This document shows, one piece after another, positions 5,516-63,421 of a DNA stretch of 64,000 bases. A program made the position numbers and the translations under genes. The notes under the pieces are model-generated. The model saw only the letters and a program-made list of their open reading frames with translations, was not told the origin of the DNA and made no database searches. This DNA is from a candidate division Kazan bacterium RIFCSPHIGHO2_01_FULL_44_14 (lineage in GTDB: Bacteria > Patescibacteriota > Kazan-3B-28). The stretch covers positions 631,200 to 695,199 of the forward strand of contig METB01000001.1 of assembly GCA_001771185.1 (NCBI GenBank), in the 5' to 3' direction. Numbering within the stretch: position 1 is the first letter of the stretch; each line of letters opens with the position of its first letter.

Positions 5516-5716
5516 TCCTACCGGCCCTTCAGTGAAGGGTTGTTCTGAATTGAGCTAAATCATTGCCGCGAAGCCACTGTTTAAGGAGCGAAGCGACGAG
5601 TTTGGCTGTAAGCGGAAAAATGATTTAGCCAATGAATAAGCCCGGAACTGTCCGGGCCACGGCTTTGGTTACTTTCACCAAGAGGAAAGTAACGGCGGGT
5701 TGAGCGTCGCCTAAAC
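5516..5716 (-). repeat. D-family structured 3'-end element, copy 1 (minus strand, downstream of lepB)
   Basis: Its reverse complement carries the H1 hairpin gttactttcctcttggtgaaagtaac, then ...ccgggcttattcattgg, the 10-bp helix ctaaatcatt/aatgatttag, and ctcaattcagaacaacccttcactgaagggccgg. Confidence 0.75.
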
Positions 5717-22352: not shown

Positions 22353-22469
22353 TCACCTAAATTTCTAATTTCTAATTTCGAATCAAATTCCAATGACTGA
22401 ATGTTTCAAAATTAAGACATTAGGTCATTCACTCAAAATTCAAAATTCATCATTCAAAATTATATTTAT
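22353..22469. repeat. C-family hairpin element, copy 1, flanked by an 18-bp direct repeat of a palindrome (cctcttaagataagaggg at 22335-22352 and 22470-22487)
   Basis: Core caatgactgaatgtttcaaaattaagacattaggtcattc, with atttctaatttcgaatcaa on the 5' side and aaaattcaaaattcatcattcaaaatt on the 3' side. Confidence 0.75.
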
Positions 22470-34562: not shown

Positions 34563-34642
34563 GAATTTCTAATTTCTAATTTCGAATCAAATCCCAATGA
34601 CTGAATGCTCCAAAATTAAGACATTAGGTAATTCATTCGACC
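34563..34642. repeat. C-family hairpin element, copy 2
   Basis: atttctaatttcgaatcaaatcccaatgactgaatgctccaaaattaagacattaggtaattc. Confidence 0.7.
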
Positions 34643-34671
34643 CATTCCCGCTTTGTCTTATATTTTTTTGT

Positions 34672-43769: not shown

Positions 43770-43797
43770 CTTTTCTGACCGTATAACGACGGTCAAT

Positions 43798-43975
43798 CCG
43801 TTGCTACTTTTGTCTTGCCAAAAGTAGCCAAAAGCGTGGCCCGGACAGTTCCGGGTCTATTCATTAGTTAAACTGCTGGGCGCTTTCGCCGAACTCGCCT
43901 TCGGCTCAAACAACGGCTTCGCCCCAAGCAATTTAACTTAATTCAGAACGACCCTTCACTGACGGGCCGGATGAT
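43798..43975 (+). repeat. D-family structured 3'-end element, copy 3 (after the ftsL-like gene)
   Basis: H1 gctacttttg-tcttgcc-aaaagtagc; ccgggtctattcatt; helix agttaaa...tttaact; cttaattcagaacgacccttcactgacgggccgg. Confidence 0.75.
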
Positions 43976-46262: not shown

Positions 46263-46516
46263 GTCCAAGCGCAAGCTGGCGCTTGACCCAGCACAGACGA
46301 GCGCCACATCGCGCTCGACCGATGGGCACTTTGGCTTGTCAAAGTGCCATAAATCGCTTTCGCAGTCGCTCTCGTTATTCATCACAACTAATTCCCTTAC
46401 TGCTCTCGCCAAACTCCCCCTCGACTACGCTCGGGGTCAAACAGTTGGCTTCGCAACGGGAATTAGTTGGATTCAGGACATTCGAGCTCCAATGCTCGGT
46501 TAAGAAGGAATTGTCT
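46263..46516 (+). repeat. D-family structured 3'-end element, copy 4 (after ftsI; diverged subtype)
   Basis: tccaagcgcaagc...gcttgacc; H1 ggcactttg-gcttgt-caaagtgcc; ttattcatcac; cagttggcttcgcaacggg; aattagttggattcaggacattcgagctccaatgctcgg. Confidence 0.75.
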
Positions 46517-48971: not shown

Positions 48972-49195
48972 AAATGAGCGCAGGGTGGCGCTCAACCCAC
49001 CGTTACTTTCCTCTTGGCGAAAGTAACCAAAGCCGTCTCCGCAGTCGCCCTCTTTATTCATCACAACTAATTCCCTTACTGCTCTCGCCAAACTTGCCCC
49101 GACCTAAAGGTCGGGTCTTCGAACAGTTGGCTTCGCAACGGAAATTAGTTGGATTCAGAACACTCGGGCTCCAATGCTCGATTAAGAGGGGATAG
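48972..49195 (+). repeat. D-family structured 3'-end element, copy 5 (after mraY; same subtype as copy 4)
   Basis: H1 gttactttcc-tcttggc-gaaagtaac. The remaining ~130 nt are about 85 % identical to copy 4. Confidence 0.75.
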
Positions 49196-49250
49196 TAACT
49201 ACTCGATGGGTCCCAATAAGATTGATACCCCGAATCCGCCAACTGGCGGA

Positions 49251-49340
49251 CTAATTTCGAATCAAACTCGAATGACTGAATGCTTCAAAATTAAGACATT
49301 AAGATATTTACTCAAAATTCAAAATTTGTCATTCAAAATT
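49251..49340. repeat. C-family hairpin element, copy 4
   Basis: ctaatttcgaatcaaactcgaatgactgaatgcttcaaaattaagacattaag...caaaatttgtcattcaaaatt. Confidence 0.7.
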
Positions 49341-49438
49341 ACTTATACTCCAATATTCAGTATCTTCTCCCCCCTAAGATAAGGGGAGGTAGGGTGGGGT
49401 CATATGGGTGCAAATTGGCTCTGGGGGAGGGTTTTGGC

Positions 49439-49467
49439 TTGACGGTAGGTGGGAATAGGAGTATAAT
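49439..49467 (+). promoter_or_regulatory. Promoter for the DGR target gene (TTGACG-17-TATAAT)
   Basis: -35, a 17-nt spacer, and a perfect -10. A homologous promoter is at 63862-63890. Confidence 0.6.
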
Positions 49468-49571
49468 CAAGGTGTAAGGTGGGCCTGTAATTTTCAGGGA
49501 TATCAACCATCAGCACCTTGAAGACTAGTTCTGCAAAACTGGCCAGCAAGGCGAACCAGAAGGAGACTAGG

Positions 49572-50624
49572 ATGAACATCCTGGCCGCTATTAGTGTCGT
49601 ATTGAAATTTCTCGAAGCTTTGATTGTTGCTAATCAAGACAAAGATGGTCATTTCTCCCGGGTGAGTGAGTTGCTTACACAGCTCAAGTCGCTCGGCGAA
49701 GAGCCCCTCTCTCGTCTGATGCAGCGGATTAATGTTGTTGGCTTGGTGCTGAGCCGGGTCAGCATCCCCAGTTACGAAGAGTTTCAGGGGTTCGTGGACA
49801 CACAGGTTCTTTCCTGGCTACCGAAGCCGTCCCGTACACCAACCCGACTCAAGGGCAATTGGCAGAACGAACGACTGAAGGTGCAGAAGAAAGCCTGGGC
49901 CGTAATCGGGGTCGAGCTTCCGCAGGATCTTTGTGATGAGTTCGTTGCAATCCTAAACAAGTGTGGCGCCGAATTGGTAGCGACCCTCGAGGCGTATGGC
50001 TTCATGTTTGTTATCACGCCGGATATCACTTGGACCGTCAACACTTGGCCTGCCAAGTGGGTTAAGCTCAACAACTGGTTCTGGCAGATTCTGGGTAGCG
50101 GACGTCTCCTCAAAGAGGATGACACCGTAATCCAGCACTGCAAGCTCCAACGCCAGGTCCTGCTAATCGATACACGCAAGAAGCCTGTCTATGCTGACGG
50201 TCGTCAGTGTTGGGACAAGGATGTGTTCATGGAGGCTCTAATCGGGTGGCTTCAAGACCAAAAGAAACTGCCTATCGACAGCACCTGCGGTCGTGGTAGT
50301 CGCTTCCGCTTAAGCCGCAACGACTATACAAAGGTTGTGGCTCCAGCTTTATTAGAGGCGCTTCAACAGCTCGGTTGTCCGGCTCAAGCCGTTCGGTTGG
50401 AATACTGTCCGGAGCATTCTGCTTTCTGCCAGCTGTTTGATGCCCCCCGCAAGGATAGTGGAAAGACAACCACTTGGCTGTGGTTCCAAGAGCGACTGGA
50501 CTCGTCCGGGCACTCGCTGCATAGCGGGGTCTCCGGCAGCGGTGGTCTGGCGTTCGTCAGTTTCAACAATTCCGACTACCGCTGGAACAACGTATCTGCT
50601 TCGCTCGTGGCAGTTATGGTCTAG
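49572..50624 (+). CDS. DGR variable (target) protein; the C-terminal ~41 codons are the variable repeat
   Basis: The SD aaggag lies 8 nt before the ATG. The 3' 123 nt (50493-50615) match the downstream TR except at TR adenines. The C-terminus is ...WLWFQERLDSSGHSLHSGVSGSGGLAFVSFNNSDYRWNNVSASLVAV. The TTG at 49518 is an alternative start. Confidence 0.7.
   Translation: MNILAAISVVLKFLEALIVANQDKDGHFSRVSELLTQLKSLGEEPLSRLMQRINVVGLVLSRVSIPSYEEFQGFVDTQVLSWLPKPSRTPTRLKGNWQNERLKVQKKAWAVIGVELPQDLCDEFVAILNKCGAELVATLEAYGFMFVITPDITWTVNTWPAKWVKLNNWFWQILGSGRLLKEDDTVIQHCKLQRQVLLIDTRKKPVYADGRQCWDKDVFMEALIGWLQDQKKLPIDSTCGRGSRFRLSRNDYTKVVAPALLEALQQLGCPAQAVRLEYCPEHSAFCQLFDAPRKDSGKTTTWLWFQERLDSSGHSLHSGVSGSGGLAFVSFNNSDYRWNNVSASLVAVMV
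50493..50615 (+). repeat. DGR variable repeat (VR)
   Basis: Of 123 nt, 112 are identical to TR. All 11 mismatches sit at positions where TR has A (VR has C, T or G). Confidence 0.85.
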
Positions 50625-50668
50625 GCCATTTTGGGCGTTTGGATTTTTTGGAATTTGGTATCATCCCC

Positions 50669-50698
50669 GAGCGGGGTTGCTTGCAACCCCGCTCTTTT
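50669..50698 (+). terminator. GC-rich hairpin directly downstream of VR (gagcggggtt-gcttgc-aaccccgctc + TTTT); a DGR target-recognition hairpin and/or terminator
   Basis: A 10-bp perfect stem lies 54 nt after the end of VR, with a T-tract. Confidence 0.7.
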
Positions 50699-50922
50699 CA
50701 TATACTGATGTAGATGCGGCAGTGAATAGATACTTTGGTATCTATCGTCGCTCTCCCTTTTGGGACCAGCCAGAGTTTATAAACTCAAGTAGTTTATAAA
50801 GAGTGCTAAACCTAAAAGAGAAACTGCGTATCTGCTACTCAGTCTCATGAAGTGAGGCGCATAAAATACAGGCAGAACATCTTGTTTGTTTGCCAGTGCT
50901 AAAGGATGGTGGCAGATACTAA

Positions 50923-51045
50923 CGACTGGACTCGTCCGGGCACTCGCTGAATAGCGGGGACTCCGACAACGGTGGTCTGGCGAACGTCAATTACAACAAT
51001 TCCGACAACCGCTGGAACAACGAATCTGCTTCGCTCGTGGAAGTT
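50923..51045 (+). repeat. DGR template repeat (TR)
   Basis: It is the non-coding cognate of VR, has the same length, and is adenine-rich at the mismatch positions. Confidence 0.85.
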
Positions 51046-51065
51046 TCTCGCATTAGGTAGGTAAA

Positions 51066-51089
51066 GGGGGCGGGGGTCACCTCGCCCCC
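51066..51089. terminator. Hairpin gggggcg-ggggtcacct-cgccccc overlapping the avd stop codon
   Basis: A 7-bp GC stem lies between TR and the convergent avd gene. Confidence 0.5.
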
Positions 51090-51382
51090 TTAGTCGTAGT
51101 TTTAATCCAACCTCCCAGCATTTTTCCTATTTCTTGTAGCTTAGTTTGGAGGGTTAGATAATACTTTTCGTTAAGTGCCTGCACCTCATAACCCAAGCGG
51201 ATTTGTAGCTTCACTAAATCCAGCAAGGCACTCGCTCTAAATAGTATCTCCACCCTGGAGCGTTCAGGAGTGGAGGAGGCCGTCAGGACACATTCCACTA
51301 ACTCCAATATCTTCGCTTGGGTCATCTGGCCCAGACTGTATCGCTCAATTTTGGGATATTTCAAAAGATGTCCATGAAACAA
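51077..51382 (-). CDS. avd: DGR accessory variability determinant (Avd-like four-helix-bundle protein)
   Basis: It is ~100 aa and basic, with a C-terminus ...EIGKMLGGWIKTTTKGAR that resembles Bordetella phage bAvd ...EVGRILGSWIARVNRKGQ. It lies between TR and the RT but on the opposite strand. Confidence 0.65.
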   Translation of the reverse strand: MFHGHLLKYPKIERYSLGQMTQAKILELVECVLTASSTPERSRVEILFRASALLDLVKLQIRLGYEVQALNEKYYLTLQTKLQEIGKMLGGWIKTTTKGAR

Positions 51383-51503
51383 TTTGTAAAACTCGAAGAG
51401 CTGATAAACGATTGGGATTTCACCAAATCCGTCCGGGGGGGGGCTTAATAGGAAGGTTATTTTCCATACTGGTGTTTTTGAAGAAATTATTTCGTTAGAG
51501 AAT

Positions 51504-52616
51504 TTGTTTTTGGCTTGGAGGGAGTTTCGGAAAGGTAAACGAGGTAAGTTAGATGTCCAAGCGTTCGAGCTTCATCTTGAAGATAACATATTTGCTCTTT
51601 ACGAGGAGTTAGCGGGTGGAGATTATTGCCACGGTGGCTATCATCAGTTTCGCATCTCCGACCCGAAATCTCGCTTGATTAGTAAGGCGTTGGTTCGGGA
51701 TAGGTTGCTCCACCACGCTATCTGCCGAATCTTGTATCCGGTTTTTGATCGAACCTTTATCTTTGATAGCTACTCTTGTCGAAAGAATAAAGGGACGCAT
51801 AAAGGATTCTTTCGGTTAGCCGAGATGGCTCGAAAAGTCAGTAGAAACTATACTGGTCCGTGCTGGGCGTTGAAGTTGGATATTCGGAAGTTTTTCGACA
51901 GTGTCGATCATAGTGTGTTGATGGGGCTGTTAAGAGGGCGCATTGCCGACGAGCGACTGCTGGGGTTATTGGGGAATATTATTGGTAGCTTCCCTATGCG
52001 TCATTCTGAACGCAGTGAAGAATCTAGCGGTAGCGTTCTGCTGTACAGCAGAACTAGATCCTTCGCTAACGCTCAGGATGACAGGAGGAGAGTTCAGGAT
52101 GACGAGAGGAGAGTTAAGGATGACAAAGGAGCGGGCGGGGATGACGAAGGTGGCAAGGGGATGCCATTGGGGAATCTGACCTCACAATTATTTGCCAATA
52201 TCTATCTGGATCCATTAGATAAGTTTGCGAAACATCACTTAAGAGCTAAATATTATCTTCGCTATGCCGATGACTTTATTTTCTTGGCCGATAACCCAGA
52301 CGAACTAATGGGCTATTTTGTGGAGGTAAATCAGTTTTTGAAAATCAAGCTAAAGCTTAATCTTCATCCAAATAAAATCTCTCTCCGAAAATTGGACTGG
52401 GGAATTGACTATGTTGGGTATGTGGCATTGCCACATTACGCTGTTCCCAGAAGCAAAACGGTTACCCGGATTGTTAAAAAGATTCGTCGACTTGTAGTGA
52501 TAGGTGACGAAGCAACTTTGACTAAAGCAATGCCGTCATATTTAGGGTATCTTGAGCATACTAGTAGCTACCGAGTGAGGCGACGGTTAGAGGGAGTAGT
52601 CGAGAGGATACCATAA
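51504..52616 (+). CDS. DGR reverse transcriptase
   Basis: It has RT motifs ...LKLDIRKFFDSVDH..., the DGR-specific PLGNLTSQLFANIYL (LGxxxSQ in place of the group II QGxxxSP), and YADDFIFLAD. The conserved N-terminal motif FEEIISLENLFLAWREFRKGKR begins upstream at ~51477, where no ATG/GTG/TTG is in frame. An in-frame A-family repeat insertion lies at 52016-52150. Confidence 0.85.
   Translation: MFLAWREFRKGKRGKLDVQAFELHLEDNIFALYEELAGGDYCHGGYHQFRISDPKSRLISKALVRDRLLHHAICRILYPVFDRTFIFDSYSCRKNKGTHKGFFRLAEMARKVSRNYTGPCWALKLDIRKFFDSVDHSVLMGLLRGRIADERLLGLLGNIIGSFPMRHSERSEESSGSVLLYSRTRSFANAQDDRRRVQDDERRVKDDKGAGGDDEGGKGMPLGNLTSQLFANIYLDPLDKFAKHHLRAKYYLRYADDFIFLADNPDELMGYFVEVNQFLKIKLKLNLHPNKISLRKLDWGIDYVGYVALPHYAVPRSKTVTRIVKKIRRLVVIGDEATLTKAMPSYLGYLEHTSSYRVRRRLEGVVERIP
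52016..52150. repeat. A-family mini-element inserted in-frame in the DGR RT (encodes RHSERSEESSGSVLLYSRTRSFANAQDDRRRVQDDERRVKDDKGAGGDDEGG)
   Basis: gtcattctgaacgcagtgaagaatctag ... tcaggatgacagg, then a 4x tandem aggatgac tail. Its 5' part is near-identical to 13329-13360. Confidence 0.75.
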
Positions 52617-52620
52617 TACC

Positions 52621-52723
52621 AAATTTCTAATTTCGAATTTCTAATCAAATCTAAATGACTGAATGTCTCAAAATTAAGATATTAGGTCATTCATTTAAAA
52701 TTCAAAATTTGTCATTCAAAATT
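52621..52723. repeat. C-family hairpin element, copy 5 (after the RT)
   Basis: aaatttctaatttcgaatttctaatcaaatctaaatgactgaatgtctcaaaattaagatattaggtcattc... Confidence 0.7.
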
Positions 52724-52848
52724 ACTTGCCAGGATACCATCACTTTTAACTTTTAACTGACTCCACGATTTCCCTTGCCTGGGAGCGGGTTTTATGGTAT
52801 GACAGGGGTATCTTGCAGTATGTTCTTTAACAGGGAGGTTTTAAAACG

Positions 52849-53037
52849 ATGGACAAGCAATGCATTGCTACTGGGTGTCAAAATCCGGCTAACAACCGGT
52901 GTATCGTCTGTTGTCAGCCGATATGCGACAGTCACATTGTTTTGATTGATGATATTCCGGTTTGTGGGAAGTGTCGTGCCGATCTTTCTGCACCGAGACC
53001 GGCAAGACCAGTGCAAACAGAAACGGCGGCCGTTTAG
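52849..53037 (+). CDS. Small Cys-rich (zinc-ribbon-like) protein
   Basis: The SD gggagg is upstream. It has the pattern CxxC...CxxCC...CxxxC...CxxC. Confidence 0.4.
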   Translation: MDKQCIATGCQNPANNRCIVCCQPICDSHIVLIDDIPVCGKCRADLSAPRPARPVQTETAAV

Positions 53038-53080
53038 TCGTCATTGTAAATATTTCAGGCCACATTGGGAGGTGGTGGAG

Positions 53081-53671
53081 ATGAAGCGGGTTGGGTTTGT
53101 AATAGTAGTGGGGCTGGTCCTGCTGCTAGGGCTATCTTTGCGGAGCGAGACCGAAACGGGTAGTAAAGACCTTGAGGGGATTTTCCGATATCGCTTCGGG
53201 ATGTCAGTTTCGGAATGTCAATTGATTGCCAAAGGAGCGCTGGAGCGTCAGGATAATTCGGATATTCCCGGATTGGTGGAGTATTCGACTGACCATGGGC
53301 TCTTGAGCAATCGAGACGGCAGTATTAGTAATCTGCCAGCCGGATTATGCCTTTCATTTTACAACGGCAGATTAGCAGGAATCATCGTCGAGTTGCCGCA
53401 ACAGGAAGATGCCCAGGTTGCGACAATGCTAGTAACCGCGCTTCGGGACGATGTGCTAAAATATTACGACAAATTAATCGTGATGCGAAACAAGTTCCGT
53501 CCTGATGAAAGTTTATTAGTGCTCACTCTCAAAGATGCAGAAGGTGATGGTCTGCTTCTGATGTGGGACGGAATGGACATTCTGCTCTGTTTAATGACGG
53601 GTGAGTTATTGCAACTTAATCCCGAGTGGACTAGGACCTTTTTGACTGAAAATGATTGCCCTGCTTTTTAG
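53081..53671 (+). CDS. Secreted hypothetical protein
   Basis: The SD gggaggtgg is strong. It has an N-terminal signal/TM. Confidence 0.45.
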   Translation: MKRVGFVIVVGLVLLLGLSLRSETETGSKDLEGIFRYRFGMSVSECQLIAKGALERQDNSDIPGLVEYSTDHGLLSNRDGSISNLPAGLCLSFYNGRLAGIIVELPQQEDAQVATMLVTALRDDVLKYYDKLIVMRNKFRPDESLLVLTLKDAEGDGLLLMWDGMDILLCLMTGELLQLNPEWTRTFLTENDCPAF

Positions 53672-57960: not shown

Positions 57961-59148
57961 ATGAGGCCTTATCACCGACAAGATTATTATTTAGCAGTTA
58001 CCACTTTTGTATTGGTGATATTTGGTTTGATTATGGTGGCTTCGGCTTCGGTGGTGGAATCGTATACGGCGACCGGCTCTAATAATTATTATTTTCTGCG
58101 CCAGGCCGGGTTTGCGGGAGTGGGACTAATTTTGTGGTGGTTTTTACAAAAGTTGGATTATCGGTTTTGGAAACGCTGGGCGGGAACACTGTTAATTATC
58201 GCTGGGGTTTTGTTGGTATTAGTGTTAATTCCAGGCGTTGGAGTTGAGGCCGGTGGAGCCAGGCGGTGGATTGGATTTGGTAATTTTACTTTACAGGCCA
58301 GTGAGTTTGCCAAATTTGCTCTAATCGTTTATTTGGCATATTGGTTTGAGCGGAAAGGGCGGGAAATTACGGATTTATATAAAACCTTTCTACCGTTCGT
58401 GGGGCTACTATTGGCAATGTTTTTCTTGGTGATTCAAGAACCTGATTTGGGCACGGCTTTGGTGATGGCTGCGATTGCTGGGACGATGTATTTAGTCGCC
58501 GGAGCAAGTTGGGGTCAAGTTGGCACTTTGTTGGGGGGTGGTGTGGTGGCAGTACTGCTTCTGATTAAAGTAGCACCTTATCGGTTACGGCGGTTGCTGA
58601 CTTTCTTGAATCCGGGGGCCGATCCGCTGGGGGCGGGATATCACATCAACCAAGCTCTGCTGGCAATCGGCTCGGGCGGTATTTTCGGGCTGGGGTATGG
58701 TCATAGTCGGCAAAAGTACAATTTTTTGCCGGAACCGTCATCTGACTCAATTTTTGCTATCATAGGAGAGGAGTTGGGTCTGATTGGGGCAGTGTTTCTG
58801 GTGATTATCCCTTTTGCAATCATCGTTTGGCGGGGTCTATTGGTGGCTCGGAAAGCCCCTGATATGTTCGGTCGGATGATGGCGTTGGGACTAACTTGCT
58901 GGATTGGATATCAGGCAGTAATTAATATCGGGGCAATCGTTGGGTTGTTTCCGCTCACGGGAGTGCCGTTGCCGTTCATTAGCTTGGGAGGCAGTTCGTT
59001 GGTAGTAATGCTGGCAGCTTCGGGAGTATTACTTAATATTTCTAAGCAGACAGTAAAAAGCAGTGAAGATGAAAATCCTTTTAGTTGGTGGTGGAACTGG
59101 TGGGCACGTTATGCCAACTCTAGCGGTCGCCGCGCAGTTAAAAGATAA
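57961..59148 (+). CDS. ftsW: Peptidoglycan glycosyltransferase FtsW (SEDS family)
   Basis: It is polytopic with SEDS motifs. The 3' end overlaps murG by 86 nt in another frame. Confidence 0.85.
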   Translation: MRPYHRQDYYLAVTTFVLVIFGLIMVASASVVESYTATGSNNYYFLRQAGFAGVGLILWWFLQKLDYRFWKRWAGTLLIIAGVLLVLVLIPGVGVEAGGARRWIGFGNFTLQASEFAKFALIVYLAYWFERKGREITDLYKTFLPFVGLLLAMFFLVIQEPDLGTALVMAAIAGTMYLVAGASWGQVGTLLGGGVVAVLLLIKVAPYRLRRLLTFLNPGADPLGAGYHINQALLAIGSGGIFGLGYGHSRQKYNFLPEPSSDSIFAIIGEELGLIGAVFLVIIPFAIIVWRGLLVARKAPDMFGRMMALGLTCWIGYQAVINIGAIVGLFPLTGVPLPFISLGGSSLVVMLAASGVLLNISKQTVKSSEDENPFSWWWNWWARYANSSGRRAVKR

Positions 59149-60184
59149 ACTGCCGGACAGCGACTTGTTGTATGTTGGTTCTCGGATGCCAGCAGACCGT
59201 CAATTAGTGGAAACGGCCGGTTTAGTGTTTCAGCCGATTACGACTGGTAAGTTGCGCCGGTATTGGTCGTGGAAAAATTTTATTGATGGATTCAAATTTT
59301 TGACCGGACTAACTCAAGCCAAACGAATAGTGAGAGATTTTCAGCCGGACGTAGTGTTTGCCAAGGGTGGTTATGTGGCATTACCAGTGGTTTTGGCGGC
59401 ACATCAACAAAAGATTCCAGTAGTAATCCATGAATCCGACAGCCGGTTAGGACTGGCTAACCGGTTGGCCATTCCCTCGGCGACTAAAGTAGCAGTTGCG
59501 TTTCCGATTGAGGAATATTTTAAGTGTCAGCCCGGTTTGGGAAAATATCGGGCCAAGTTTATTTATACCGGGTTGCCATTGCCTGATTCTTTGATGATTG
59601 GAGAGGACAAGTCGTTGTTTGCTAATTCTAAACCCACTATTCTAGTAACCGGTGGATCGCAAGGAGCTCGGGCAATTAATCAGGCCGTCTGGAACGGCTT
59701 ACCCGAACTGTTGGCTAAGTATAATGTGGTTCATCAGGTTGGAACGGGGGGGGTGGCCGAAGCCGATCAGAGGCGGCAGGCGCTCCCGGCCGGGCTAGAT
59801 GCGAGTTATTTGCCATTCGATTTTGATGCCGAATTTTATCAACGAGCATTGCGGTCGGCGGACTTGGTGGTAGCCCGGGCCGGTTCGATGGTGTTTGAAT
59901 TGCAGGCATTAGGGAAACCAGCGATTTTAATCCCATTGCCGCATTCGGCGAACGATCACCAGCATCGCAATGCTAAATTTTTAGTAGAGCATCAGGCAGC
60001 GGTTGCCATTAATCAGCGTGATTTAACGGCTGATGGACTGTTGGCCGTGATTGAACAAGTCATGAGTGATGTTAAGTTAAGGCAGGAGTTATCGGATAAT
60101 TTAGCAGAACTGGGCAAGATTAATTTGGCAGCCAGCCGAGTATTGGCGGATCTAGTTATTAAGATTGGACGGCATGAAATATAA
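59063..60184 (+). CDS. murG: UDP-GlcNAc:lipid I N-acetylglucosaminyltransferase
   Basis: It has the GGGTGGHVMP G-loop and a GT28 C-terminal domain. Confidence 0.85.
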   Translation: MKMKILLVGGGTGGHVMPTLAVAAQLKDKLPDSDLLYVGSRMPADRQLVETAGLVFQPITTGKLRRYWSWKNFIDGFKFLTGLTQAKRIVRDFQPDVVFAKGGYVALPVVLAAHQQKIPVVIHESDSRLGLANRLAIPSATKVAVAFPIEEYFKCQPGLGKYRAKFIYTGLPLPDSLMIGEDKSLFANSKPTILVTGGSQGARAINQAVWNGLPELLAKYNVVHQVGTGGVAEADQRRQALPAGLDASYLPFDFDAEFYQRALRSADLVVARAGSMVFELQALGKPAILIPLPHSANDHQHRNAKFLVEHQAAVAINQRDLTADGLLAVIEQVMSDVKLRQELSDNLAELGKINLAASRVLADLVIKIGRHEI

Positions 60185-62458: not shown

Positions 62459-62537
62459 ATTTCTAATTTTTAATTTCGAATTTCGAATCAAATCCCAATG
62501 ACTGAATGTTTCAAAATTAAGATATTAGGTCATTGAT
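62459..62537. repeat. C-family hairpin element, copy 6 (after murC)
   Basis: atttctaatttttaatttcgaatttcgaatcaaatcccaatgactgaatgtttcaaaattaagatattaggtcattg. Confidence 0.7.
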
Positions 62538-62545
62538 TCAAAGTA

Positions 62546-63421
62546 ATGTTAAAGAGGGGGTTTTCTACTAATTGGTTTACTAAAAAAAAGCGGTCAGCAC
62601 CGTCTCGGGTGGTGTTGTTTAACCAGCAACAAAAATATAATCAGCGAATGCGCGGTAATCTTTTGCGCAAAACCAGCGTCCAATTAACGGCGGCGAAACT
62701 AAGTCGACTGCGAACTCCTGCTAGGTGGTGGTCAAAGGTTCTGGTGGTGTTGGGACTGGGCTTGGTGGGATACCTGCTGTTTGGGACTAATTTATTTGTG
62801 TTGGATACTTTGCGGATTACTGGTACACACTTAACCGAACCCGATGCGATTCAGGCCGTATTGTTCCCGCGGGGGTTTACCAAAATGAATGCATTAACTT
62901 GGTGGGAAAGCCGAGCCAAACACAAAGTCGAATCATTGCCTCAAGTTCAGTTGGTTCACTTTGTGAAAAATTTTATTTCTGACACGTTGACAGTCGAAGT
63001 AACTGAACAGCAAATGGCGGTGGTGTGGCAGACGGCCGGGGAAAAGTTCTTGATTAATCGTCACGGAGTGGCATATGACCGAGCGGAAGAGGGGAACCCA
63101 CTGCTGACAATCGAAGATCTGAAAAATATTCCGATTAGTTTGAATCAGCGGATTGTAACATCGGACTTTATTGATTTTGTGACTAGTTTTGCGGCTAATC
63201 TTCCGCGCAAAACCAATTTGGTGATTCGGCGAATTACCGTGCCAGAGACCACTTTTGAAGTAGAAATGGAAACTAGCGAGGGTTGGAGAATTATTTTAGA
63301 TACGACTGGTAGTTATGACGAACAGCTCAATAATTTGGTCAGAGTATTACAGGAGATGGGGGATAGAAAGCCCAGAGAATATGTGGATTTGAGGGTGGGG
63401 AAGAAAGTGTTTTATAAATGA
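62546..63421 (+). CDS. ftsQ: Cell division protein FtsQ-like (POTRA domain)
   Basis: It has a basic N-terminus, a single TM, and a POTRA-like region, and it sits at the dcw position after murC. The start is uncertain. Confidence 0.65.
   Translation: MLKRGFSTNWFTKKKRSAPSRVVLFNQQQKYNQRMRGNLLRKTSVQLTAAKLSRLRTPARWWSKVLVVLGLGLVGYLLFGTNLFVLDTLRITGTHLTEPDAIQAVLFPRGFTKMNALTWWESRAKHKVESLPQVQLVHFVKNFISDTLTVEVTEQQMAVVWQTAGEKFLINRHGVAYDRAEEGNPLLTIEDLKNIPISLNQRIVTSDFIDFVTSFAANLPRKTNLVIRRITVPETTFEVEMETSEGWRIILDTTGSYDEQLNNLVRVLQEMGDRKPREYVDLRVGKKVFYK

Follow-up and report, generated by a model that had tools for sequence, protein, structure and literature searches.

A G-run at the overlap of avd and the reverse transcriptase gene as a candidate slippage switch on a diversity-generating retroelement of a Kazan bacterium

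A complete diversity-generating retroelement (DGR) of the type known from the candidate phyla radiation (CPR) was found in a stretch of 64,000 nucleotides (hereafter the window) from candidate division Kazan bacterium RIFCSPHIGHO2_01_FULL_44_14 (contig METB01000001.1, positions 631,200 to 695,199). Its parts are arranged in the order target gene with variable repeat (VR), template repeat (TR), accessory gene avd on the minus strand and reverse transcriptase (RT) gene. In the assembled sequence neither avd nor the RT gene has a usable start codon, and a run of nine guanines (G9) is located where the 5' coding ends of the two genes overlap. We propose that repeats at this position form a slippage-prone phase switch acting on avd, and often also on the RT gene, and that the window carries an allele in which both genes are OFF; we put the probability of this reading at roughly 0.68. 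A wider claim, which we consider reasonably likely, is that about 40% of CPR-type DGRs carry a hypermutable repeat (poly-G, (GA)n or (GT)n) in the 5' end of avd, often where the sequence also codes for the RT, and that this repeat is a contingency switch which gates a targeted hypermutator, with one tract co-switching two divergent genes and the window representing an OFF/OFF allele.

According to the proposed mechanism, slipped-strand mispairing at this simple-sequence repeat during replication would toggle avd and RT stochastically, and stuttering of RNA polymerase may possibly toggle them as well. At the assembled length of G9 neither gene has a start and the DGR would be OFF, while at G8 or G11 both genes would be ON. 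Mutagenic retrohoming would then be confined to a subpopulation or proceed at a low level. We infer that switching occurs in the window strain and that it affects the activity of the DGR.

Start codons of avd and RT and the G9 run

The RT frame (codon starts divisible by 3) is closed by a TAA stop at 51405 and the next ATG, GTG or TTG is the TTG at 51504, which is already inside the conserved N-terminal motif FEEIISLENLFLAW. Between these two positions only ATT codons were observed (51411, 51417, 51459, 51486 and 51489). A first-pass annotation, made by a model from the letters of the window, had noticed this gap correctly and had proposed the ATT codons as the only start candidates. This second point no longer holds, as conserved ATGs of both RT and avd were found one frame away across the G9 run and are restored at G8 or G11. 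The avd gene likewise has no usable start: its bAvd match begins at 51397, upstream of the sole canonical start of the open reading frame (ORF), a TTG at 51382, and the frame remains open farther upstream without a start codon. The G9 run, which was absent from the first-pass annotation, is located between the RT-frame stop and the RT motif, within an antisense overlap of about 100 nucleotides formed by the 5' coding ends of avd and RT.

When the length of the run was varied in silico, an ATG-initiated ORF was obtained for both genes at G8 and G11 and for neither gene at G7, G9 and G10. The RT is 415 amino acids long at G8 or G11 (MSMKQFVK…) and Avd, starting from the ATG at 51467, is 129 amino acids long (MENNLPIKPPP). 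Homologues of both N-termini are read in frame in other loci. For example, the RTs P0013 and P0017 begin with MKNLVEIEQFLNNADFRFVRGG… and P0003 contains …MNEFVKI…, and the Avd of L006, a close relative without a tract, begins with MENNFPTRPLSDSS and is of the MENNFPT(K/R) type.

The overlap is set in a register where the codons of avd and RT face each other exactly. The ATG of avd lies antisense to CAT, the His codon of the 'IFHTG' segment of the RT, and the two ATGs of the RT (51368 and 51374) are the antisense of two His codons in the 'FHGH' segment of Avd. The run itself codes for Gly-Gly(-Gly) in the RT and for Pro-Pro-Pro in Avd. As both frames cross the run, any change in its length shifts avd and RT together. 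A homopolymer of at least 7-8 nucleotides in or just upstream of a coding sequence is characteristic of contingency loci, and here it is found inside the conserved N-terminal segments of both genes; the accompanying toggling between an intact and a frameshifted ORF upon length change was reproduced in silico. As a control, the only other G or C run of at least 8 nucleotides in the window (G8, 59746-59753) was inspected and found to be located in murG (ORF 59063-60184), an essential gene, where it is in frame (…VGTGGVAEA…). Further controls, (GA)n or G8-G9 runs in the RT loops of other loci, are likewise in frame.

The frameshift has led to truncated RT and avd calls in public annotations of the window. 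For the RT, the call begins at a TTG at 51510 and reads 'MAWREFRK…' (368 amino acids; P0001, AQS30233.1), which removes half of the conserved N-terminal helix, and the avd gene calls in L081-L083 are 95 amino acids long. Long spurious N-terminal extensions, read in the OFF frame, were observed in P0003, P0004, P0021 and P0044.

Repeats in related loci and alternative explanations

Related loci were fetched from species-representative genomes (80) and from metagenomes (80), and 121 unique loci were used in the repeat counts. In these loci, 12-135 nucleotides, mostly 35-65, lie between the point where the Avd domain begins and the N-terminal motif of the RT. Within this zone of about 57 nucleotides, a simple repeat was observed in 51 of the 121 loci, of which 41 carry G runs of at least 7 (G7-G12, with a single G21), one carries C7 and nine carry at least four units of GA, CT, GT or AG. 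Repeats reach 7.4 per kb in this zone, a 52-fold enrichment over the 0.143 per kb found across the 559 kb that make up the rest of these loci. An in-frame ATG for Avd is present in 68 of the 70 loci without a repeat as compared with 17 of the 51 loci with one, leaving 34 in the OFF state (Fisher p = 5e-15). The poly-G loci are spread over all three phases, with 14 ON, 13 that need the loss of one nucleotide and 12 that need the gain of one, and with three more that belong to none of these classes. The length class that turns the RT ON was found to be the one that turns Avd ON in 25 of the 26 informative loci. The RT of about a dozen loci is provided with an ATG of its own on the downstream side of the repeat, which leaves avd as the only repeat-dependent gene there.

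Repeat-bearing loci are interspersed with repeat-less ones in a neighbour-joining tree of the RT, and sister loci show a mixture of ON and OFF states. The tree also shows different types of repeat at the same position in different subclades. Enrichment at one site together with mixed ON and OFF states among relatives is a pattern expected of contingency loci. We also considered that the tract might be a non-coding intergenic or promoter spacer. This was rejected as the 51 repeat loci all lack an ATG in the stretch from the tract to the Avd domain, as L006 uses the homologous upstream ATG without having a tract, and as the ON classes of RT and Avd coincide.

Differences in tract length were observed between contigs that are otherwise identical. 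L093 (G11, OFF/OFF) and L095 (G12, ON/ON) differ by the extra G alone over 3471 nucleotides, and L097 (G11, OFF/OFF) differs from both, beyond the tract, only by a 52-nucleotide indel. In another relative, Kazan bacterium GW2011_GWA1_50_15, the RT locus carries (CT)10 with avd out of frame in six assemblies and in the complete genome CP011216. The corresponding L167 carries (CT)9, which gives a full Avd of 135 amino acids whose ATG abuts the RT ATG, and the repeat unit is the sole difference in 3444 nucleotides. A further pair of loci for P0068, L175 (G10T) and L176 (G11), was rejected as a length polymorphism because it involves a T/G substitution without a change of frame.

The indel in the first set concerns 52 nucleotides (CGGGTTAAAATGGGTGGGGCTGG…) located at 2485-2537 in L093 and L095, about 1 kb downstream of the RT start, and missing from L097 at about 2485. 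This segment has the appearance of a further small element, mobile or repetitive, whose presence varies within the strain.

The most serious alternative, which we nevertheless regard as unlikely, is slippage or recoding at the RNA level alone, where the DNA tract would be stable, every allele would yield a small in-frame fraction of avd and RT, and the repeat would act as a constitutive attenuator. Slippage of bacterial RNA polymerase is well known, for example in dnaX of Thermus and at poly(A) tracts of endosymbionts, and the tracts of 9-12 nucleotides are within its range. The 14/13/12 spread over the phases would also be expected if the DNA phase were selectively neutral, and the window strain carries G9 in all of its assemblies. 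This explanation is opposed by the length polymorphism at the DNA level in the two relatives described above. As for recoding by the ribosome, programmed frameshifting has a fixed direction; OFF alleles needing -1 and OFF alleles needing +1 both occur, and a single-direction frameshift, which cannot rescue the two kinds, is therefore excluded. RNA-level slippage and DNA-level switching are not mutually exclusive, and the uniform phase distribution fits DNA-level switching as well as RNA-polymerase stuttering at OFF alleles.

The phase switch that we propose has to be weighed against several points of its own. The uniform spread over three phases would be expected as well if expression were independent of the DNA phase, for example through heavy transcriptional slippage. 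The enrichment, the Fisher test and the phase counts ignore the shared ancestry among loci, and the evidence as a whole is comparative and drawn from consensus assemblies, which are blind to heterogeneity within a population. No variation in tract length was observed in the window strain, where all the retrieved assemblies (L081-L083) carry G9. Furthermore, no Shine-Dalgarno-like sequence was found upstream of the RT or avd ATG, and a promoter scan of 50550-51750 gave nothing above chance. Finally, a connection between DGRs and repeats of this kind was not found in the literature that we searched; the search did not extend to the principal study of CPR DGRs (Paul et al. 2017, Nat Microbiol 2:17045), which may hold an earlier mention.

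That this copy of the DGR was killed by the frameshift and is now being lost as decaying pseudogenes is very improbable in our view. Such decay would account for avd and RT both being out of frame, for a VR that is monomorphic in all contigs and for a repeat element inside the RT. However, beyond the tract both ORFs are intact and no catalytic or invariant residue has been lost, TR and VR form a clean pair that differs at template adenines only, and the inserts in the RT are always in frame. The same single-site 'defect' is also found at the same position in dozens of lineages, and other lesions were observed in only two of the 51 repeat loci, which again counts against decay.

An error of sequencing or assembly at the homopolymer, with a true run of G8 and both genes intact, is given only a slight chance. 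Homopolymers are error-prone and G8 does give two clean ORFs, and the first-pass annotation had advised a check of the reads at 51405-51504. Such an error was rejected as an identical G9 was found in three independent assemblies from different ENA samples (L081-L083) and as the pattern is clade-wide: two thirds of the 51 independent repeat loci, from many studies, are out of frame with both offsets, whereas the same data show in-frame repeats in other genes.

Non-canonical initiation in a correctly assembled RT frame at ATT 51411, 51417 or 51459 is hardly credible and was rejected, for although such in-frame codons are present and MAFFT places ATT 51459 under the Met of P0072 (MFHEGTF…) and ATT 51411 under the 'Met' of P0015, the latter is shown by the DNA of L008 to be a TTG that a gene caller selected in an allele which is out of frame (G11), ATT 51411 and 51417 are forced by the conserved I-P-I codons of Avd on the other strand, and the missing start of avd (which the frameshift model covers together with that of the RT), the restoration of the conserved ATGs of both genes by one G fewer and the cleanly in-frame state of a third of the tract-bearing relatives would all be left unexplained.

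A different arrangement of the two starts was observed in distant loci (L053, L059, L062, L063, L070, L072, L080 and others), where the ATGs of avd and RT meet within a palindromic CATATG and leave no intergenic base. It is the arrangement of the half of the family that lacks repeats, and it is also found at L167 (1192-1203). As the ATGs abut, the promoter and ribosome-binding signals of each gene must be located inside the partner gene, or else the mRNAs are leaderless.

The cassette, its proteins and the hairpin element in the RT

The features of the cassette are listed in Table 1. The succession of TR, avd on the reverse strand and RT corresponds to architecture B3, TR-(avd)-RT, the arrangement of 90% of CPR DGRs (Wu et al. 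2018, NAR 46:11, PMC5758913). The position of avd between TR and RT on the opposite strand had been recognized in the first-pass annotation and is supported by the ORF coordinates and by the Pfam bAvd match. Its description as an atypical arrangement has to be withdrawn, since B3 is so common and since the related loci, wherever the flank is long enough, all have an avd of opposite orientation immediately upstream of the RT.

Table 1. Coordinates of the DGR cassette and of the elements discussed in the text (positions in the window).
Feature	Position	Strand	Remarks
DGR target gene	49572..50624	+	350 amino acids from ATG 49572; from the ORF list and the gene call in the identical contig L081
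VR	50493..50615	+	123-nucleotide direct repeat with TR (repeat family D13), 91% identical
GC-rich hairpin	50669..50694	+	Downstream of VR; 11-bp stem then T-run; terminator-like site in scan
TR	50923..51045	+	430 nucleotides downstream of VR
avd main part	51077..51434	-	bAvd four-helix-bundle domain from ~51418 to stop codon 51079-51077; no in-frame ATG/GTG upstream of the domain
RT 5' segment	51368..51434	+	ATG 51368 (or 51374), then MSMKQFVKLEELINDWDFTKSVRGG; frame 2; joins the RT frame at G8/G11
G9 homopolymer (C9 on avd strand)	51435..51443	.	Proposed slippage switch; longest homopolymer in the 64 kb
avd 5' segment	51444..51467	-	ATG 51467-51465, then MENNLPIK; joins the avd domain in frame at G8 and is frameshifted against it at G9
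RT main frame	51444..52616	+	N-terminal motif FEEIISLENLFLAW from 51477, LGNLTSQ, YADD, stop 52614-52616
MITE-like GTCAT…ATGAC hairpin element	52000..52145	+	146 nucleotides; in-frame insert of the loop joining RT motifs 3 and 4, immediately ahead of LGxxxSQ

The longest ORF of the target gene begins at a TTG at 49518, and the VR forms the C-terminus of its product; a Pfam search of the target protein gave no family match. All 11 differences between TR and VR are located at adenines of the TR, as is characteristic of DGRs. Activity of this DGR in the past, which the first-pass annotation had deduced for this RT or a relative from the same 11 positions, is supported. Variants of the VR were sought in the contigs of the window strain and none were found, the VR positions of the target protein being identical in three cluster members and 10 contigs (all consensus sequences). 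This monomorphic VR hints weakly at a quiescent DGR. The hairpin downstream of the VR serves as target-gene terminator and/or represents the stem-loop that DGRs carry 3' of the VR. A GC-rich inverted repeat following the initiation of mutagenic homing (IMH) sequence is known from DGR cassettes (PMC5758913).

Another G/C-rich inverted repeat (AAGGGGGCGGGGGTCACCTCGCCCCCTT) is located at 51055-51095, directly after the TR, where it overlaps the stop codon of avd. It could be a bidirectional terminator or a piece of the DGR RNA structure 3' of the TR. A 104-nucleotide AT-rich repeat (family D1, five copies, 72-100% identical) was found at 49238-49341, 52621-52724, 22359-22462, 34563-34666 and 62464-62567. 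The first two copies bracket the cassette in direct orientation, one shortly before the target gene and the other immediately behind the RT stop, and they could mark a mobile or recombining unit or could merely be intergenic terminator-like elements. Two adjacent segments of about 80 nucleotides (families D18 and D19, 84-88% identical) are located at 46341-46514, upstream of murF, and at 49020-49196, upstream of the DGR target gene, with inverted copies at 5624-5711 and 43787-43872. A scan of 49000-53200 against Rfam gave only a sub-threshold match to the L20 leader (21.8 bits, with a gathering score of 58.7); this match was taken as noise. The Kazan genome of the window contains at least one further DGR-type RT (P0050, A3K24_02535), which is 56% identical to the RT of the window and begins with MFDQIISLENL. 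A protein identical to that of the target gene bears the locus tag A3K24_03420, in one series with that of P0050.

The RT matches Pfam RVT_1 (E 7.8e-20) and retains every invariant column of 27-28 homologues. It carries both motifs that define the DGR clade of RTs, [I/L]GxxxSQ as motif 4 (LGNLTSQ) and YxDD (YADD). Its best relative of solved structure is bRT, the DGR enzyme of Bordetella phage BPP-1 (PDB 8ub7, E 7e-47). The product of avd matches Pfam PF22296 bAvd (E 3.1e-15) over profile positions 8-106 of 107, with the match beginning at 51397.

The RT gene also contains an inserted hairpin element, which belongs to a genome-wide repeat family. The first-pass annotation had described a 135-nucleotide element of the GTCATTC family, in frame before the LGxxxSQ motif; the family and the in-frame location stand, and the length is corrected to that given in Table 1. 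The termini of the element are inverted (GTCATTCTGAACG and CGCTCAGGATGAC), its center is a perfect 20-nucleotide palindrome (GTTCTGCTGTACAGCAGAAC, 52035-52054) and its tail is a tandem repeat of a 21-nucleotide unit (2.9 copies at 52073-52131, Tandem Repeats Finder). GATGAC occurs four times. The insert is predicted to fold as a hairpin with a free energy of -46 kcal/mol (z -2.2). The terminal motif GTCATYCTGARCG was found 21 times in the window as compared with 3.7 expected, a level reached in none of 100 shuffles, and copies of the element with the layout GTCAT…GGATCTAG…ATGAC are located at 2284, 13330, 23297, 25923, 34670 and elsewhere. Dispersed copies with inverted termini and without coding capacity of their own are characteristic of elements resembling miniature inverted-repeat transposable elements (MITEs) or Rickettsia palindromic elements (RPEs). 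No target-site duplication around 52000-52145 was obvious by eye, and no systematic search for one was made.

The RT of the window was compared with related RTs, as suggested in the first-pass annotation. The loop of the window RT from IIGSF to GKGMPLGN is 55 amino acids long as compared with 6 in most relatives. Within a Kazan-like subclade the motif 3-4 loop ('…IIxSF' to 'GxPxGN') is 15-57 amino acids long and is built of GTCAT…ATGAC-type hairpins in most close relatives. As an example, a core of about 66 nucleotides in the closest insert-bearing relative (L001/L086, Kazan RBG_13_50_9) is near-identical to that of the window, with one mismatch by eye and the palindrome included. All the loop inserts in the related loci are in frame and leave the RT ORF at full length, and the doubt that the insert had cast on the activity of the RT in the first-pass annotation is not borne out by these inserts in the same loop.

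Modelling of the RT together with its insert, also suggested at first pass, gave a disordered excursion from an otherwise well-folded enzyme. The AlphaFold2 model has a predicted template modelling score (pTM) of 0.60 and a well-folded core with many blocks above 85 in predicted local distance difference test (pLDDT), whereas the insert (residues 198-255) has a pLDDT of 25-35 and no secondary structure. The alignment with bRT breaks exactly at the insert (bRT residues 159-175). As the loop is repeat-prone, the frame is kept in every case and disorder is predicted for the insert, the latter is best taken as an in-frame element, selfish or repetitive, that a permissive loop on the surface probably tolerates, and it probably does not inactivate the enzyme. 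The tolerance of this loop for inserts of 15-57 amino acids may be useful for engineering DGR RTs.

Other RT subclades carry simple repeats in the same loop, all in frame, either as (GA)n read as RERERE… or as runs of G7-G9 (L045, L048, L034 and L040; L047, L078 and L028). These runs may be further slippage-prone sites within the RT. Beside the RT of L003, a phage-type integrase of about 730 amino acids was observed (L171-L174, 2147-3252) with matches to Intein_splicing and LAGLIDADG between two Phage_integrase matches, and this neighbour appears to be an intein-containing tyrosine recombinase.

Significance and comparison with known systems

Continuous mutagenesis of adenines is costly for a working receptor. 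If our reading is right, a repeat that gates avd, and often the RT too, would provide a simple, heritable and reversible control in the group where DGRs are most abundant. It would amount to second-order bet-hedging, with a stochastic switch placed over a targeted hypermutator. The coding solution itself is unusual as two divergent genes overlap at their 5' ends codon opposite codon, their start codons are antisense to His codons of the partner, and the homopolymer is read as Gly(n) or Pro(n). Gene callers truncate or mis-extend such RTs and Avds and, therefore, surveys that demand an intact RT and Avd would miscount CPR DGRs. DGRs, the B3 architecture and phase variation by simple repeats are each well known; for their combination our search found no paper, and the words 'homopolymer' and 'start codon' occur nowhere in PMC5758913.

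The DGR of the window resembles other B3 DGRs of the CPR in its gene order, orientation and host group (candidate division Kazan within the CPR), in its DGR-type RT with LGxxxSQ and YADD, in its accessory protein of the bAvd family and in the A-only differences between TR and VR. It differs by the antisense overlap of the 5' ends of avd and RT with a repeat inside, which was not found in the literature searched. With bRT (8ub7 and related entries), the RT shares an alignable N-terminal helix (H-x-x-L/F-x-x-I…ENL), motif 4 and YxDD. However, bRT begins four residues before the conserved His, whereas the RT of the window has about 32 extra N-terminal residues which double as antisense avd sequence, and its loop between bRT residues ~159 and 175 is about 49 residues longer. 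The avd gene of the Bordetella phage is collinear with the RT gene and does not overlap it, while that of the window is divergent and overlapping.

The hairpin element recalls the RPEs, reportedly described by Ogata and colleagues (2000, Science), which are said to be inserted in frame in protein-coding genes. It is similar to these and to other MITEs in being a short, dispersed palindromic repeat that encodes no transposase, and to the RPEs also in its in-frame insertion at a surface position of a conserved enzyme with the ORF preserved. The differences are that GTCAT…ATGAC hairpins of CPR genomes are involved here and that the same RT loop was hit or remodelled repeatedly in many lineages, elsewhere with (GA)n and poly-G runs.

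The closest parallels to the proposed switch are the poly-G/C contingency loci of Campylobacter, Neisseria, Haemophilus and Bordetella (e.g. PMC4965091, PMC5084427, PMC1891110, PMC11868660), which likewise carry a G/C tract of 7-12 nucleotides in the 5' coding region. In both cases a change of one nucleotide in either direction toggles the frame, ON and OFF states are mixed among close relatives, and otherwise identical sequences differ in tract length. Those loci switch a surface antigen or a restriction-modification enzyme, whereas the object here would be a mutagenesis machine (avd and RT), and one tract read on both strands would switch two divergent genes at once. The hosts here are also uncultured CPR bacteria, in which the switching is predicted from sequences. 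A single repeat that controls two divergent genes has a precedent in hifA/hifB of Haemophilus influenzae, where a (TA)n repeat between the divergent fimbrial genes is said to alter the -35/-10 spacing of the promoters and thus to exert transcriptional control. That repeat reportedly acts on the promoter, whereas the repeat of the window is located within both coding sequences and would act through the reading frame.

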